Shown: positions 2,459-41,656, counted from the stretch's first letter. The stretch is DNA of 44,456 nucleotides from Flavobacteriales bacterium (GCA_019638075.1 JAHBUM010000002.1:1-44456); one strand, 5' to 3'. The notes: generated from the sequence alone by a model not told the origin. Numbers and translations: made by a program.

Positions 2459-3547
2459 ATGAAACGCAACTGGATCCTGCCCATCGTACTGGTCGTACTG
2501 GCCCTCGGCATCGGCCTGCGGCTGGCCGGCAACAAGAAGAAGCTCGATGCGGCGAAACAGCCCATCGACCGCAGCGGCTTCGCCATTCCCGTGAACGTGA
2601 TCGTCGCGGCCATCGCGCCGGTGGAAGGCGGCTTCTCCGTGCCCGGCACACTGGAGCCGTACGACCACGCCAAGGTGATGGTGCAATCGCAGGGCAAGCT
2701 CGCCAGCCTGCACGTGGACCTCGGCTCGCGCGTGGCGAAGGGGCAGGTGCTGGGCAGCCTCGATGTGGCACAGAAGCAATTGGAACTACAGGCCGCCGAG
2801 CTTTCGTTGGAGAAGCTGCGCAAGGACGAGCAGCGCTACCGCGAGCTGGTGGCGGGCAAGGCCGCGCCCGAGGCCAACTACGATGATGTGCGCTTCAACT
2901 TCGAGACGCAGCAGGTGAAGGTGGACCAGATCCGCCAGCAGCTCCGCGATGCACAGGTGATCAGTCCGGTGGGCGGCACCGTGGTGGCGAAGAACGTGGA
3001 GGTGGGCGAATACGTGGGCGCCAACACCGCCGTGGTGGAAGTGGTGGACGTGAGCCGCCTGAAGGCGCGGGTGCAGGTGAGCGAGCATGATGCCTACCGC
3101 CTGAAGGAGGGCGATGCCGTGGCGATCACCAGCGCAGTGTTCCCCGGCGAGACCTTCGATGGCCGCGTGACCTTCGTGAGCCCGCGCGGCGATGCCAGCC
3201 ACAACTACCTCGTGGAAGTGGCGTTGCAGAACGATAGAACGCATCCGCTGAAGAGCGGCACCTTCATCAACGCGCGGTTCGACACGGGATCCGGCGTGCC
3301 CATGCTCACGATCCCCAAGAACGCGCTGGCCGAAGGCATGAAGGAACCCTACGTGTACGTGGTGCAGGGCGCCGGCGATGATGCGCGCGCGCAACGCCGC
3401 GAGCTGGTGCTGGGCCGCGAGGCCGGGGAGCGCGTGGAAGTGCTGAAAGGTCTGGCGCCGGATGAGACCGTGGTGGTGAGCGGTCAGTTGAATCTGGTGG
3501 AGGGAAGCAGGGTACGGGTGAATGCGGGCGATCAGACAATTAGATGA
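2459..3547 (+). CDS. Efflux RND transporter periplasmic adaptor (MFP/HlyD family)
   Basis: 362 aa. N-terminal TM anchor, then lipoyl / alpha-hairpin / beta-barrel pattern (GTLEPYDHAKVMVQSQGKLASLHVDLGSRVAKGQVLGSLD ... VISPVGGTVVAKNVEVGEYV). Confidence 0.9.
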   Translation: MKRNWILPIVLVVLALGIGLRLAGNKKKLDAAKQPIDRSGFAIPVNVIVAAIAPVEGGFSVPGTLEPYDHAKVMVQSQGKLASLHVDLGSRVAKGQVLGSLDVAQKQLELQAAELSLEKLRKDEQRYRELVAGKAAPEANYDDVRFNFETQQVKVDQIRQQLRDAQVISPVGGTVVAKNVEVGEYVGANTAVVEVVDVSRLKARVQVSEHDAYRLKEGDAVAITSAVFPGETFDGRVTFVSPRGDASHNYLVEVALQNDRTHPLKSGTFINARFDTGSGVPMLTIPKNALAEGMKEPYVYVVQGAGDDARAQRRELVLGREAGERVEVLKGLAPDETVVVSGQLNLVEGSRVRVNAGDQTIR

Positions 3548-3574
3548 TCAGAAGATCAGACGATCAGATGATCC
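3530..3574 (+). repeat. Tandem octamer repeat GATCAGAN (about 5 copies) spanning the MFP stop codon
   Basis: GATCAGAcaatta-GATGATCAGAA-GATCAGAC-GATCAGAT-GATCC. The same word GATCAGAAG recurs at 4628-4636 and, reverse-complemented, twice at 33812-33828. Confidence 0.8.
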
Positions 3575-3628: not shown

Positions 3629-3636
3629 TACATTTA
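3629..3636 (+). promoter_or_regulatory. Candidate -7 promoter box TACATTTA just upstream of the riboswitch
   Basis: 7/8 match to TAnnTTTG, ending 5 nt before the first aptamer nucleotide, so a transcript would start at the aptamer 5' end. Confidence 0.4.
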
Positions 3637-3640
3637 CCGC

Positions 3641-3697
3641 ACAGGAAATGGGGTCTTCCTGAACCAACCGCCGCAGTGGCTGATGACTCCTGTTCAC
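3641..3697 (+). promoter_or_regulatory. Fluoride riboswitch (crcB motif RNA)
   Basis: ACAGGAAAUGGGGUCUUCCUGAACCAACCGCCGCAGUGGCUGAUGACUCCUGUUC. Local stem AGGAA/UUCCU (3643-3647 / 3656-3660) with loop AUGGGGUC. Conserved AACCGCC, a short second stem GCC..GGC and conserved GCUGAUGA. The 3' GACUCC (3685-3690) complements loop GGGGUC (3650-3655) to form the pseudoknot. By eye it aligns to the published Pseudomonas syringae and Bacillus cereus fluoride aptamers. It lies 17 nt upstream of crcB. Confidence 0.85.
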
Positions 3698-3713
3698 TTA
3701 AGGTCTATCGGCC

Positions 3714-4097
3714 ATGAACAGGATGTGGATCATAGTCGGCTTGGGCGGTTTCATCGGCGGCGCTGCGCGTCACTTCTGGATGACTTGGGGCACGCGCCTT
3801 TCCATCGGTGCGTTCCCGTGGGCGCTGATGGGCCTGAACGTGCTGGGCAGCCTCGCGATCGGCGCGGTGTTCGGCCTGTCGCAGCGGTACCAATGGTTCA
3901 CGCCCGAATGGAGGCTCTTACTCGGCGCGGGCGTGTGCGGCGGCTTCACCACGTTCTCCGCCTTCAGCCTTGAAACGGTGCAGTTGCTGCAACGCGGCGA
4001 GACCATGCAGGCCGCGCTCTTCGCGCTGGGCAGCGTGGCGCTGTGCGTCATCGGCACGGGCATCGGGCTTTACCTCACTTCAACACATCCGGCATGA
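3714..4097 (+). CDS. crcB: Fluoride ion channel CrcB/FluC
   Basis: 127 aa, 4 TM. Family signatures GGFIGGAARH, LGLNVLGSLAIG, CGGFTTFSAFSLE. Confidence 0.95.
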   Translation: MNRMWIIVGLGGFIGGAARHFWMTWGTRLSIGAFPWALMGLNVLGSLAIGAVFGLSQRYQWFTPEWRLLLGAGVCGGFTTFSAFSLETVQLLQRGETMQAALFALGSVALCVIGTGIGLYLTSTHPA

Positions 4098-4651
4098 AAC
4101 ATCCATGGCACCACGTGGCGACGGGCGAACGAGCGCCGGAGCGCGTACACGCGATCATCGAGATCCCCAAGGGGAGCCAAGGCAAGTACGAACTGCACAA
4201 GGAAAGCGGCCTGCTGATGCTGGACCGCGTGCTCTTCAGCGCGGTGCATTACCCGGCCAATTACGGCTTCATCCCGCGCACCTATTGCGACGACAACGAC
4301 CCGTTGGACATCATGGTGCTCACGAGCCTTACGCTGCCGCATCTCTGTCTGGTGGAGGCCACGGTGATCGGCGTGATGCGCATGGTGGACCAAGGCGAGG
4401 CCGACGACAAGATCATCGCCGTGGCGACGCATGATGAGAGCGTGAACCACATCACGGACATCGCCCAGCTGCCCGCCCACACCACGTTGCAGATGCGCCG
4501 CTTCTTCGAGGATTACAAGAAGCTGGAGCACAAGGAGGTGGTGGTGGAGCATTTCCTCGGCCGTGAAGAGGCACTGCAGATCGTGAAGGAGAGCATGGAG
4601 TTGTACGAGACGGTGTTCGGAGGGGAGGATCAGAAGGACAGAAGTGAATAG
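4094..4651 (+). CDS. ppa: Inorganic pyrophosphatase, family I
   Basis: Tracked ORF 4043..4651 trimmed to MKHPWHHV at 4094, whose ATG overlaps the crcB TGA (ATGA). Family I PPase pattern: VHAIIEIPKGSQGKYELHKESGLLMLDRVLFSAVHYPANYGFIPRTYCDDNDPLDIMVL...DDKIIAV. The last ~10 codons (GGEDQKDRSE) are encoded by a GATCAGA-type repeat. Confidence 0.92.
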   Translation: MKHPWHHVATGERAPERVHAIIEIPKGSQGKYELHKESGLLMLDRVLFSAVHYPANYGFIPRTYCDDNDPLDIMVLTSLTLPHLCLVEATVIGVMRMVDQGEADDKIIAVATHDESVNHITDIAQLPAHTTLQMRRFFEDYKKLEHKEVVVEHFLGREEALQIVKESMELYETVFGGEDQKDRSE

Positions 4652-4716
4652 CGAATGGTCATTGGCGAATGGGCGGCTCCGCATTCCCATTCACCACCTC
4701 CCATTCACCATTCACC
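4628..4716. repeat. Word-periodic hairpin element (GATCAGAAG words, then GAATG / CATTC heptamers)
   Basis: GATCAGAAG-GACAGAAG, then heptamers GTGAATA-GCGAATG-GTCATTG-GCGAATG (4644-4671). After a spacer come the complementary heptamers GCATTCC-CATTCAC-CACCTCC-CATTCAC-CATTCAC (4681-4715). GAATGGG 4667-4673 pairs with CCCATTC 4686-4692. Confidence 0.75.
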
Positions 4717-10959: not shown

Positions 10960-11059
10960 GGCAGTTGCCAGGAATGCCTCCGTCCGTGGCTGCGATGGAA
11001 CGGAAGCCTACACAGCAGCTCTCACCAAGGAGCCTGACAACTGGCAACTGACAACTGCC
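10960..11059. repeat. MITE-like element, copy A (GGCAGTTGCCAGG ... CCTGACAACTGGCAACTGACAACTGCC)
   Basis: About 70-95% identical by eye to 28244-28343. The right end CACCAAGGAGCCTGACAACTGGCAAC[T/C]GACAACTGCC is identical apart from one mismatch. The interior shares AATGCCT..TCCG..CGATGGAAC..GAAGC. It lies between convergent genes. Confidence 0.75.
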
Positions 11060-11069
11060 AGCCCCCCCC

Positions 11070-23500: not shown

Positions 23501-23507
23501 GAGGGGA

Positions 23508-23572
23508 GCGGGCAGTAGGCTCATCAGGGCATTGCTGCCTACTGCCTGCTGCGGACCGTCTGCTGTCTGCCC
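23508..23572. repeat. Word-periodic hairpin element (GGCAGTAGGC / GCCTACTGCC), related to 27902-27974
   Basis: 10-bp perfect stem 23511-23520 / 23537-23546. The loop TCATCAGGGCATTGCT matches the loop GGTCAGGGCATTTGCT of the 27.9-kb copy. Trailing CTGCTGC/CTGCTGTCTGCC words follow. It starts 8 nt after the HD gene stop. Confidence 0.7.
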
Positions 23573-25125: not shown

Positions 25126-25198
25126 TGGTGCCTCCCAGAATCGAACTGGGGACACATGGATTTTCAATCCATTGCTCTACCAGCTGAGCTAAGGCACC
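25126..25198 (-). tRNA. tRNA-Phe (anticodon GAA)
   Basis: Reverse complement GGTGCCTTAGCTCAGCTGGTAGAGCAATGGATTGAAAATCCATGTGTCCCCAGTTCGATTCTGGGAGGCACCA folds into a canonical cloverleaf: 7-bp acceptor, D arm GCTC/GAGC, anticodon stem ATGGA/TCCAT with loop TTGAAAA, T arm CCCAG/CTGGG with TTCGATT. 73 nt; CCA is not encoded. Confidence 0.97.
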
Positions 25199-27348: not shown

Positions 27349-27930
27349 ATGGACAGGCCGCTCCGATCCATCCTCATCACGGTAAGCATCGCTTTTGCCG
27401 CCTGCCAGAACGATCTGGACAAGGTGGCCGCCGTTGAAGTGCAGCAGACCGCGCCGGACCGCATCACCACGCAGGCCGAATACCTGCAGAGCGACAGTGG
27501 CCGCGTGACGAACCGGCTGCGCGCGGGCCGCATCGCCCAATGGTCCACCGGCGACCGGGAGCGCACCGAGATGAGCGAGGGCGTGGAACTCGTCTTCTTC
27601 GATCGCGACGGCGAACAGCAGAGCCAGCTCACCGCGCGGCGCGGCCTCATCCTGCCGAAGGAGAAGCGCATGGAGGTGTACGAGCAGGTGGTGTTCGTGA
27701 ACCACAAGGGCGAGCGGCTGGAGACGGAACAGCTCACGTGGTACGAGGACAGCGCACGCGTGCGTACCGACAAGGCCGTGCGCGTGCAGCGCGGGCACGA
27801 CGTGATCCACGGCATGGGCCTCGATGCCGCCGAGGATTTCAGCAGCTATGTGATCCACAACATCACCGGGCAGTTGTATGTGCCGGATGAAGATACAAGT
27901 CGGCAGCAGGCAGTAGGCAGCGGGCAGTAG
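27349..27930 (+). CDS. lptC: LPS export ABC transporter periplasmic protein LptC
   Basis: 193 aa. Lipoprotein-like N-terminus (ITVSIAFAAC). The OstA/LptC beta-jellyroll pattern repeats (AEYLQSDSGRV...; MSEGVELVFFDRDGE...; VVFVNHKGERLETEQLTWYEDSARVRTDKAVRVQRG). The last 10 codons lie in a hairpin element. Confidence 0.8.
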   Translation: MDRPLRSILITVSIAFAACQNDLDKVAAVEVQQTAPDRITTQAEYLQSDSGRVTNRLRAGRIAQWSTGDRERTEMSEGVELVFFDRDGEQQSQLTARRGLILPKEKRMEVYEQVVFVNHKGERLETEQLTWYEDSARVRTDKAVRVQRGHDVIHGMGLDAAEDFSSYVIHNITGQLYVPDEDTSRQQAVGSGQ

Positions 27931-27974
27931 GCAGCAGGCCCGGTCAGGGCATTTGCTGCTGACTGCCTACTGCC
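27902..27974. repeat. Word-periodic hairpin element: five tandem heptamers GCAG[CT][AG]G, then GCTGCTGACTGCCTACTGCC
   Basis: Heptamers GCAGCAG-GCAGTAG-GCAGCGG-GCAGTAG-GCAGCAG at 27903-27937. A 15-bp stem (one bulge) pairs 27923-27937 with 27959-27974. It supplies the lptC stop codon. Confidence 0.8.
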
Positions 27975-28220: not shown

Positions 28221-28343
28221 GTTCGTTGTCGGTTGTCGGTTTTCAGTTGTCAGGGAATGCCTTCTTCCGCAGCTTCGATGGAACACAGAAGCTGCCCGGC
28301 AGTGTCCACCAAGGAGCCTGACAACTGGCAACCGACAACTGCC
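28221..28343. repeat. MITE-like element, copy B (heptamers GTTGTCG-GTTGTCG-GTTTTCA-GTTGTCA ... TGACAAC-TGGCAAC-CGACAAC)
   Basis: 11-bp perfect pairing of 28244-28254 with 28317-28327, plus 9 bp of 28233-28241 with 28330-28338. The ~62-nt interior has its own hairpin GCAGCTTC..GAAGCTGC. It is homologous to 10960-11059. Confidence 0.8.
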
Positions 28344-32582: not shown

Positions 32583-33545
32583 TCAAGCCTTCATGGCCGC
32601 CTCCACCATGTTGCTGCTCCCGATGTACAGCGGTGTGCGTTGGTGCAGCTCGGTGGGCTTAAGGTCCAGGATGCGTGTGGTGCCGTCGGTGGCTTTCCCA
32701 CCGGCCTGTTCTGCAAGGAATGCGAGCGGGTTCGCCTCGTACAGCAGACGCAATTTGCCCTTGGGCGCTTTCTGTGTGCCGGGGTAGATGTAGATGCCGC
32801 CCTTGAGCAGGTTGCGGTGGAAGTCTGCCACGAGGCTGCCGATGTAGCGCGCGCTCATCTTCTTCTGCTTGCAGGCATCGATGTAGCTGCGCACGCCGTC
32901 GCTGAAGTCGAACCAGTTGCCCTCGTTGATCGAATAGATCTTGCCGTCGGCAGGCGTGGTCATGTTGGGGTGGCTCAGGCAGAAGGTGCCGATGCTGGGA
33001 TCCAGCGTGAAGCCGTTCACCCCGTGGCCTGTGCTGTACACCAGCATGGTGCTGCTGCCGTACACGATGTAGCCCGCCGCCACCTGCGCGCTGCCAGGCT
33101 GCAGGAAATCCTCCAACGTCGCCTTCGGCCCGGTGCTGATGCGCTTGTAGATGCTGAAGATGGTGCCGATGCTCACGTTCACATCGATGTTGCTGCTGCC
33201 ATCGAGCGGGTCCATCGCCACCACGTACTTGCCACCGTTGTCGAAGTGTACGATGTCGTCGTCCTCCTCGCTGGCCACGGCACATACGGCGCCCTGTGTC
33301 TTCATCATGCGGATGAAGAGGTCGTTGGCGTAGACATCGAGCTTCTGCTGTTGTTCGCCCTGCACGTTCTCGGTACCCTGTGCCCCGAGGATGTCGGCCA
33401 TCAGTCCGGCCTTGTTCACCTCGCGGTTCATGATCTTCCCGGCCAGCCGGAAGGCGGTGAGCAATGAGCTCAGGTCGCCGGACGCGCCGGTGAATTCGCT
33501 TTGGCGTTCAACGATGAATTCGGAAAGGGTCTTGATGTCGGCCAT
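32583..33545 (-). CDS. fbp: Class 1 fructose-1,6-bisphosphatase
   Basis: Trimmed to [18 protein letters not shown] (ATG 33545). FBPase signatures: [66 protein letters not shown]. Confidence 0.95.
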
Positions 33546-33579
33546 GGTGCAAAGATGCGGTGGTCTTTCCTTTGCGTGC

Positions 33580-34143
33580 ATGAACATCGTCATCCGCCGC
33601 GCCGAGCCCCGTGATGTGCCGCGCATGCTGGAACTGGTGAGGGAACTGGCCCTGCTCGAGCGCGCACCGGAAGAAGTGACCGTGACACCGGAACACATGC
33701 TGGACGCAGGCTTCGGGCCGGATCCGGTGTGGGTGGGGTGGGTGGCGGAAATGCGACCAGAGGATCAGAAAATGAGAAGATCGGAAAATGACCTCGAACG
33801 CGAGGCGCGATCTTCTGATCTTCTGATCCGCTCATTTTCTGATCGCATCGCAGGCATCGCCGTCTGCTACGAACGCTATTCTACGTGGAAGGGCCGGCGC
33901 CTCTATCTGGAAGACATCATCGTGACGGAAGCCGCGCGCGGGCAGCGCATCGGTGAAAAGCTCTTCAGGGCGTGCGCGGCCTACGCGGTGGAGCATGGCT
34001 ACAGCGGTATGACGTGGCAGGTGCTGGATTGGAACACCGATGCCATCCGGTTCTATGAGCGGTTCGGCACGACGCTGGACCCCGAGTGGGTGAACGGGTC
34101 GCTGGACAGGGAGCAGTTGACGGCGGTGGTGGCTGGCCAATGA
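33580..34143 (+). CDS. GNAT family N-acetyltransferase carrying a 32-codon repeat-element insertion
   Basis: Trimmed to [24 protein letters not shown] (ATG 33580). GNAT core [64 protein letters not shown]. See the repeat at 33751-33846. Confidence 0.85.
33751..33846. repeat. GATCAGA-word hairpin element inserted in frame in the GNAT gene (96 nt)
   Basis: 14-bp perfect inverted repeat GATCAGAAAATGAG (33763-33776) / CTCATTTTCTGATC (33831-33844). Inner AAGATCG (33777-33783) / CGATCTT (33808-33814). Two reverse-complement copies of GATCAGAAG at 33812-33828. It encodes [32 protein letters not shown] between the conserved VAE and IAGIAV. Confidence 0.8.
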
Positions 34144-41557: not shown

Positions 41558-41656
41558 GGTTACGTGTTGGCGTGTTGCGTGTTACGGGTTGGCTACCCGA
41601 ACCCGCAACACGTCAACACGTAACCCGCAAACACGCAACCCGTCAACCCGCAACGC
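41558..41656. repeat. Word-periodic hairpin element (GTTNCGK 7/8-mers vs CAACACG/CCGCAAC words) between rsmA and mgtE
   Basis: GGTTACGTGTTG (41558-41569) pairs perfectly with CAACACGTAACC (41614-41625). A G.U pair follows, then CGTGTTGCG (41571-41579) pairs with CGCAACACG (41604-41612). That gives a 22-bp near-continuous stem plus about 4 inner bp. Roughly four extra unpaired C-rich words extend to 41656. Confidence 0.8.

Follow-up and report, generated by a model that had tools for sequence, protein, structure and literature searches.

We identified a 96 nt palindromic insert lying in frame within a GNAT acetyltransferase gene on a 44,456 nt stretch of DNA from a Flavobacteriales bacterium (GCA_019638075.1 JAHBUM010000002.1:1-44456), which was analysed at full length and is referred to here as the window. 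The insert is probably one copy of a non-autonomous family of palindromic repeats carried on the chromosomes of an uncultured Flavobacteriales clade of approximately 60 % GC. A typical element measures 85-115 nt and comprises a left arm of three to four GATCAGAN octamers, the variant AATGAGA included, followed by a short variable core and inverted NTCTGATC words. The copy in the window landed at the beta-hairpin tip of an SSAT-like GNAT, replacing a D-G turn. Spread may have proceeded through a single-stranded hairpin intermediate, driven in trans by an HUH enzyme of the REP/RAYT or IS200/IS605 type, or else through template switching; such a process is suggested because no target-site duplication was found and the hairpin is the conserved feature. 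Selection on the hairpin, or alternatively intrastrand palindrome correction, may have kept the arms complementary. The insert, its parts and its host gene are located in the window as follows.

33580-34143, plus strand: GNAT gene (SSAT / thialysine-acetyltransferase-like), host of the insert; ATG at 33580, 187 aa
33751-33846, plus strand: palindromic word-array element, 96 nt, in frame; recognised from its repeats, its folding, its absence from 46 of 61 orthologous loci and its homologous inserts
33759-33791, plus strand: left arm, AGAGGATC AGAAAATG AGAAGATC GGAAAATG, in which GATCAGAN words alternate with the variant AATGAGA; tandem period of 16 (TRF)
33792-33805, plus strand: central mini-hairpin and loop, CCTCG-AACG-CGAGG, the most variable part across orthologous inserts (fold, alignment)
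33808-33848, plus strand: right arm of inverted words, GATCTTCT GATCTTCT GATCCGCT CATTTTCT GATCGCAT (repeat search)

The element proper probably runs from 33754 to 33843 (CGAcCAGA through TCTGAT). Its octamer words are GATCAGAN in the left arm and the complement, NTCTGATC, in the right, and because the right arm consists of the left-arm words inverted, a long hairpin forms in single-stranded DNA or in RNA. The perfect 14 nt inverted repeat reported in an initial annotation of the window (GATCAGAAAATGAG / CTCATTTTCTGATC, 33763-33776 and 33831-33844) was present, nested within longer imperfect arms (33751-33789 and 33810-33848). Folding of 33745-33852 as RNA gave -50.2 kcal/mol (z = -6.6), with none of 200 shuffles as good, and the same stretch folded as DNA at -29.7 kcal/mol (z = -6.0), again with no shuffle as good. 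An Rfam scan of the whole window at gathering thresholds returned no match for the insert and found only a tRNA and a fluoride riboswitch. The initial annotation had also placed the word GATCAGAAG at 3546, at 4628 and in the insert; the first two occurrences were confirmed, but the exact word is not on the plus strand of the insert, which carries its reverse complement, CTTCTGATC, twice (33812 and 33820) and GATCAGAA at 33763. Seven GATC sites fall within the 96 nt.

These 96 nt equal 32 codons and 12 words of 8 nt. Two of the six reading frames of the insert are free of stop codons; for any one frame, 18 % of sequences shuffled at equal composition contain no stop. A perfect (TTCTGATC)n array meets TGA within three words whichever frame is read, and (GATCAGAA)n has no stop in any frame. 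A perfect (TTCTGATC)3 would place a TGA in frame; in the insert this is avoided, and the frame kept open, by the degeneracy of the third right-arm word (GATCCGCT). The gene thus stays open because the length of the insert is a multiple of both 8 and 3, its frame lacks stops and this word is degenerate.

The host gene matched Pfam Acetyltransf_1 (PF00583) at 4.7e-17. Sequence matches to the PDB gave SSAT2 2bei (1.3e-21) and 2fe7 (3e-19) as the nearest solved structures, and the AlphaFold model of the protein aligned to 3bj7/2bei, of the SSAT fold, with a TM of ~0.8 in Foldseek. On these matches the host is an SSAT-like member of the GNAT fold and a predicted acetyltransferase. The insert falls between the VWVGWVAE strand and the I-x-G-x-A-V-C-Y strand. 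Its reading frame is exactly as initially annotated, with no stop in 32 codons, and it is AT-richer than the gene, as had also been claimed, its GC content being 0.49 versus 0.645 for the rest of the GNAT gene and 0.634 for the window.

Relatives with nothing more than a short turn at this position, as the initial annotation had described, were abundant. Of the 120 protein relatives that matched best (60-98 % identity), 81, with lengths of 156-159 aa, had the turn E-x-[DE]-G-x-I alone, and exactly 21 nt separated W-x-G-W-V-A from G-x-x-x-C-Y at 46 of 61 loci, each a species representative drawn from uncultured Flavobacteriales genomes. The insert stands in place of the four-residue (D-G) turn of those 46 orthologues. 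Distant orthologues lack the segment, and by this alignment the 32 residues are a lineage-specific insertion, not an ancestral loop, in agreement with the earlier proposal. The proposed structural check gave a concordant picture: AlphaFold (AF2) predicted the SSAT core with confidence and assigned a pLDDT below 50 to residues 65-86, which fall between strands 51-58 and 90-101, so that the insert is modelled as a hydrophilic, disordered surface loop at the tip of a beta-hairpin, tolerated by the fold. Human SSAT2 has 12 residues at the equivalent loop, and the position therefore tolerates differing loop lengths. The insert is apparently translated as a floppy loop.

Homologous inserts were recovered from relatives, whose loci are given here by L numbers. 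The same insert was found in an independent assembly (L081; Logan SRR17732044) with 98.9 % DNA identity over 1100 nt; the two copies differ by one C-to-T change, which closes a stem mismatch and so adds a base pair. GATCAGA-type inserts occupied the same GNAT site in nine further assemblies (NCBI, ENA, Logan), five of them at 96 nt. Homologous inserts at the same junctions were present in L081, L082, L084 and L086-L090, with E-x-[CG]GATCAGA... as the left junction and ...TCTGATCG[CG]-ATC as the right one. Pairwise differences among five sequences at the first, second and third codon positions were 0.37/0.44/0.45 within the insert and 0.16/0.13/0.45 and 0.22/0.17/0.45 in the flanking coding sequence. 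The even spread of substitutions over codon positions in the insert indicates that the peptide is not under selection and is free to drift. Divergence per site was 0.24 in stem columns, whichever the codon position, and 0.47 in non-stem columns, a contrast that is somewhat inflated, and to that extent counts against our reading, as the sequences in which conservation was measured had also served to derive the stems. In the consensus hairpin 87 % of stem cells were paired, versus 26-45 % when partners were slid by one to three columns, and 7 of 22 stem pairs had changes on both sides; these values were reached by 1 of 500 shuffles. As stems change at half the non-stem rate, with some compensatory changes, constraint acts on the nucleic acid, and the hairpin arms are constrained at the nucleotide level irrespective of codon position.

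Copies with the full architecture were also found at unrelated loci. Scanning metagenomes for the composite motif GATCAGANNATGAGNNGATC gave 120 stretches. Many of these were chance matches in low-GC DNA; about 25-30 contigs of 53-65 % GC displayed the complete architecture between unrelated flanks. The shared features are termini of GATCAGA...TCTGATC, three to four words per arm including AATGAGA/TCTCATT, and AATGG / CCATT beside a variable core, with a length of 83-117 nt in most copies. Most of these copies lie in short intergenic spacers, next to either a start codon (array preceded by CAT) or a stop codon, and are closed in all frames. One GATCAGA-type copy lies in frame in Mfd (L137/L183; identified by Pfam TRCF, DEAD, UvrB_inter and CarD_TRCF_RID), where it encodes FRSDDQKISRSEIGNAERSSDRPIISSSDQ (FRSDDQKISRSE...RSSDRPIISSSDQ), a peptide of the type found in the GNAT insert. 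The mfd hairpins of L004 (17379-17471) and L019 (15180-15272; minus strand) were 92.5 % identical, versus 60-74 % at flanking third positions; such likeness across distant species reflects either strong constraint at the nucleotide level or a recent common origin of the element.

Pure direct arrays were observed in two loci, with 30 copies of CCTCTTCA in L035 (18176-18418) and 13 copies of CTTCACTT in L032 (8884-8985), which shows that octamer arrays in the clade can expand well past the hairpin form. Carriage by phage was considered and rejected, as two scans of viral contigs gave chance matches and simple direct GATCAGAG arrays only, with no hairpin elements. The related viral contigs L216, L217, L220 and L221 (67-69 % GC) carried such direct GATCAGAG arrays at one locus, varying from 5 to 9 copies; these are not hairpins.

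The window itself contains further word-array elements, some built from the words of the insert and others from different words.

3529-3573, plus strand: direct array of 5.6 GATCAGA-type words over the stop codon of a membrane-fusion-protein gene; word family of the insert, no inverted arm
4626-4716, plus strand: pyrophosphatase gene, 3' end; composite of a GATCAGA-word remnant (4626-4644) and, after it, a GCGAATGG/CCATTCAC-word hairpin (4640-4716; z = -1.4, weak alone)
10962-11060, plus strand: GACAAC-word element with a decayed left arm (z = -0.9, weak alone)
23507-23550, plus strand: GGCAGTAG/CTACTGCC-word hairpin (GGCAGNA words) directly after a stop codon (z = -3.5)
27898-27974, plus strand: GGCAGNA-word hairpin overlapping the 3' end of an LptC-like gene (z = -4.2)
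28225-28340, plus strand: GTTGTC/GACAAC-word hairpin with a 65 nt core starting GGAATGCCTTCTTCCG (z = -5.2)
41558-41654, plus strand: GTGTTGCG/CGCAACAC-word hairpin in the ksgA-mgtE spacer, directly after the ksgA stop (z = -4.7)

The two GACAAC elements (10962-11060 and 28243-28340) lie 17 kb apart and are ~85 % identical over ~95 nt, a non-repetitive core included. The 16-mer GGAATGCCTTCTTCCG is also the core of GATCAGA-type metagenome elements (L129, L186, L201 and L205); chance would give about one match in the 2 Mb scanned, compared with six observed inside word arrays. The hairpin at 41558-41654 was absent from 50 relatives examined, the closest included, which have a spacer of 33-90 nt or other sequence at that position. 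Two copies of ~85 % identity within the window, a shared core and a hairpin unique to this genome together indicate a proliferating repeat family and not one odd locus. GATCAGA words encode the C-terminal tails of the membrane-fusion protein (..AGDQTIR*; 3529-3547) and of the inorganic pyrophosphatase (..GGEDQKDRSE*; 4626-4651), and the arrays therefore also extend or terminate open reading frames (ORFs). The window and 1.25 Mb of related loci together contain 59 arrays of period 7-8, of which seven are in the window, and many adjoin start codons.

Three sites were occupied by different word families in different species. At the GNAT site, GACAAC words were present in L028, L030, L035, L049 and L059, GCGAAT words in L014, 9 nt GAGTC words in L010 and L031, and GGCAAG/GCCAGT words in L046 and L051. 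The insert of L002 (881-973) is chimeric, with a left arm of four GATCAGAA words of the GATCAGA type ending in AAAATGAG and a right arm of CCTCTCAC-type words; it forms no hairpin (dG -15), and its make-up suggests replacement or nesting of elements. The second site lies beside the divergent neighbour of the GNAT gene, as follows.

32583-33545, minus strand: fructose-1,6-bisphosphatase gene (fbp), divergent neighbour and phylogenetic marker (Pfam FBPase, 4e-76)
33546-33579, strand not applicable: divergent fbp-GNAT spacer, at its minimal 34 nt in the window; a word array stands here in about half of related species

The array in those species adjoins the fbp start codon in the 5' untranslated region (UTR), on the side of the fbp promoter and 170 nt upstream of the GNAT site, and belongs to at least three families: GATCAGAN, GCTGATNN/GCGAATNN and GGGAATGTG (L004-L066; ~30-125 nt upstream of the GNAT start). 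The third site is an Mfd loop (minus strand) between GFRKVFW and VDFQxRPQP, compared across L001, L004, L007, L008, L010, L012, L019, L025, L031, L036, L037, L047, L052, L055, L137 and L183. Five loci have a 20 aa basal form and the others have hairpins of 93-192 nt from at least four word families (GGCCA, GAGCC, GTGAATGG and GATCAGA). Preferential insertion of new elements into or beside old ones would explain such replacement of families, and the chimeras point that way.

Several observations weigh against interpreting the insert as a mobile repeat. No target-site duplication was evident when filled alleles were compared with sister empty alleles (window/L012 and L082/L048) or in the flanks of 19 family members, and a 4 nt GATC duplication would be indistinguishable from the element's terminal words. 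No transposase or RAYT gene was detected by Pfam in 34 ORFs scanned in the window and no parent insertion sequence (IS) was recognised; the sole indication of mobility is the distribution of the copies. The 44 kb window contains no second full-length GATCAGA-type hairpin, the matches at 3529-3573 and 4626-4644 being at word level. The occupation of the GNAT site by unrelated word families in other species is not predicted by a simple transposon model. Moreover, a neighbour-joining tree of FBPase interleaved filled and empty taxa, pairing the window and L012 at a bootstrap of 72 and L082 and L048 at one of 100. That interleaving, together with the loss of the D-G codons from filled alleles, which makes seamless reversion to the empty state impossible, led us to reject a single ancient insertion followed by precise losses. 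Spread of a filled allele by recombination was not supported either, as filled flanks were no closer to the window than empty flanks, with sequences near saturation. A tree of GNAT alone was too short and too noisy for use.

A further difficulty for the mobile-repeat interpretation is that, in 1.25 Mb around orthologous GNAT loci, GATCAGA arrays were found only at the fbp-GNAT locus, which could indicate a local origin. The insert would then have grown in place, by slippage of 8 nt units and by template switching within and between strands, with the native GATC of the Ile codon as its seed and, possibly, the GATCAGA array that many relatives have in the fbp 5' UTR, ~170 nt upstream, as a template. 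Tandem words are typical of slippage, there is no target-site duplication, GATC or CTGATC stands at the right junction of empty sites, the adjacent spacer of relatives has GATCAGA arrays, and the same three sites have been struck repeatedly. We nevertheless consider a local origin unlikely, since the composite order GATCAGA - AATGAGA - GATC.. - AATGG - core - inverted words recurs at the 25-30 or so unrelated loci and in mfd, different word families have the 16 nt core motif in common, and two copies of ~85 % identity with the 65 nt non-repetitive core lie 17 kb apart in the window. The genome of the window, in addition, has no upstream array to copy.

The constraint on the arms raises the question of function at the level of RNA or DNA. 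An exapted regulatory hairpin might slow ribosomes, tune the expression of GNAT or fbp as a site for RNase III or for protein binding, or provide a dense cluster of GATC methylation sites. The halved rate of change in stems irrespective of codon position, the compensatory changes, the length of 96 nt kept in 6 of 10 lineages, the likeness of the L004 and L019 mfd hairpins and the occurrence of similar arrays directly upstream of start codons all speak for such a role. Yet three quarters of orthologues do without the insert, unrelated sequences occur at the same site and no Rfam family matched; palindrome correction, or conversion from other copies, can moreover keep arms complementary without any function. 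Exaptation is accordingly a doubtful account of the insert.

Selection of the 32 residues as an extension of the enzyme, for instance as an interaction or regulatory loop to which the palindrome would be incidental, is very improbable. The loop is longer in eukaryotic SSATs and inserts have been kept in many lineages, but substitutions are spread evenly over codon positions at close to the synonymous rate, the loop scores below 50 in the AF2 model, other species have unrelated peptides at this site, and the same type of peptide recurs in Mfd and in the C-terminal tails of unrelated proteins. Finally, although palindromes can cause misassembly, for example through a chimeric or fold-back read, an artefact of assembly or sequencing, which the initial annotation had named as a risk, is effectively refuted because the independent assembly L081 carries the insert, and homologous inserts occur in at least nine other assemblies.

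The insert resembles several known kinds of repeat. Rickettsia palindromic elements (RPEs) are dispersed palindromes that repeatedly occupy unrelated housekeeping genes without breaking the reading frame (Ogata et al. 2000, as summarised in PMC10969869) and end in CGTC (Di Nocera 2013, PMC3733652). The initial annotation had likened the insert to them in behaviour, and this likeness was upheld by a dispersed family with an in-frame copy in a second gene, mfd. Both are palindromes of ~100-150 nt, chromosomally dispersed and in frame in unrelated genes at fold-compatible sites, with a similar hydrophilic peptide; the GNAT and Mfd loops encode similar peptides, and the membrane-fusion protein and pyrophosphatase tails derive from the same words. 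In contrast to the RPEs of Alphaproteobacteria, the elements described here occur in Bacteroidota, have arms of tandem 8 nt words and are mostly intergenic, with few copies in frame. The insert contains no CGTC, GACG, GTAG or CTAC and has GATCAGA/TCTGATC termini, and, as judged by tag and termini, it is not an RPE.

Similarity to REP/REPIN sequences (PMC3733652; Bertels & Rainey 2011, PMC3116915) is evident in the layout: two inverted units forming a hairpin of ~100 nt, in multiple dispersed copies that are mostly extragenic and near gene ends, with no target-site duplication. Long persistence at orthologous positions and occasional location inside ORFs are further points of likeness. Intragenic REPs have been described in DNA-repair genes, with different REPs at about the same recB site (Di Nocera et al. 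2013, PMC3733652). The elements differ in having octamer arrays for arms, where a REP is an imperfect palindrome of 20-40 nt, in the absence of a RAYT gene among the 34 window ORFs scanned with Pfam, and in the absence of the GTAG/CGTC tag from the insert and from 19 aligned family members. MITEs (Correia, ERIC, BOX; PMC10969869) are likewise small and non-coding with terminal inverted repeats, and can be fused in frame to ORFs. The elements studied here have inverted termini that are, in contrast, internally repetitive, and show no duplication at the GNAT insert or at 19 other copies and no recognisable parent IS. With no target-site duplication, GTAG/CGTC tag or transposase found, the insert is neither a classical MITE nor a member of the REPs or RPEs.

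No mechanism is known for heptamer repeats such as the cyanobacterial STRR or the TAACTGA repeats of Beggiatoaceae, Cyanobacteria and some Bacteroidetes (MacGregor 2015, PMC4679880). They resemble the present arrays in their words of 7-8 nt with CTGA, their position at start codons or over stops and occasionally in frame, their stops in all frames in one orientation and their patchy distribution. The present arrays differ in having a period of 8, in being inverted around a core as hairpins and in occurring as several word families per genome. In the literature on in-frame and intragenic palindromes, MITEs, REPIN/RAYT and heptamer repeats, excluding paywalled work, we found no description of this element, the nearest being the general papers on REPs, RPEs and heptamer repeats. 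It is an in-frame palindrome of Bacteroidota that is RPE/REPIN-like and has a novel architecture, the word array.

In-frame palindromes as such are already known; what is new is the recurrence at hot spots, the coexistence of word families and the constraint at the nucleic acid level inside a coding region. In-frame selfish palindromes are best known from Rickettsia, and the same behaviour is seen here in free-living, uncultured Flavobacteriales, many assemblies of the clade being labelled activated sludge, freshwater or soil. Comparison of filled with empty sites at orthologous positions is possible over dozens of species, in which the peptide drifts neutrally and the hairpin is conserved, and three orthologous hot spots with replacement of families make the choice of site, and whether the element is a parasite or a regulator, directly testable. 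Such inserts inflate variation in protein length, and in metagenome-assembled genomes they can lead annotation, alignment and structure prediction astray. It is conceivable, if rather speculative, that the word-array hairpins (GATCAGAN, GACAACNN, GGCAGNA, GCGAATGG, GTGTTGCG and others) form one undescribed class of self-propagating Bacteroidota DNA, with a hairpin- or site-directed mechanism that hits a few permissive positions again and again (loop tips, 5' UTRs at the ATG, stop codons), overwrites earlier elements and keeps the arms complementary. If true, this class would be a new source of loop insertions in proteins and of structure in UTRs.

The two Rfam matches in the window stand apart from the word arrays. 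The fluoride riboswitch (RF01734, 51 bits) lies at 3635-3699 on the plus strand, upstream of crcB (3714-4097), and the tRNA gene (RF00005, 71 bits) at 25126-25198 on the minus strand.

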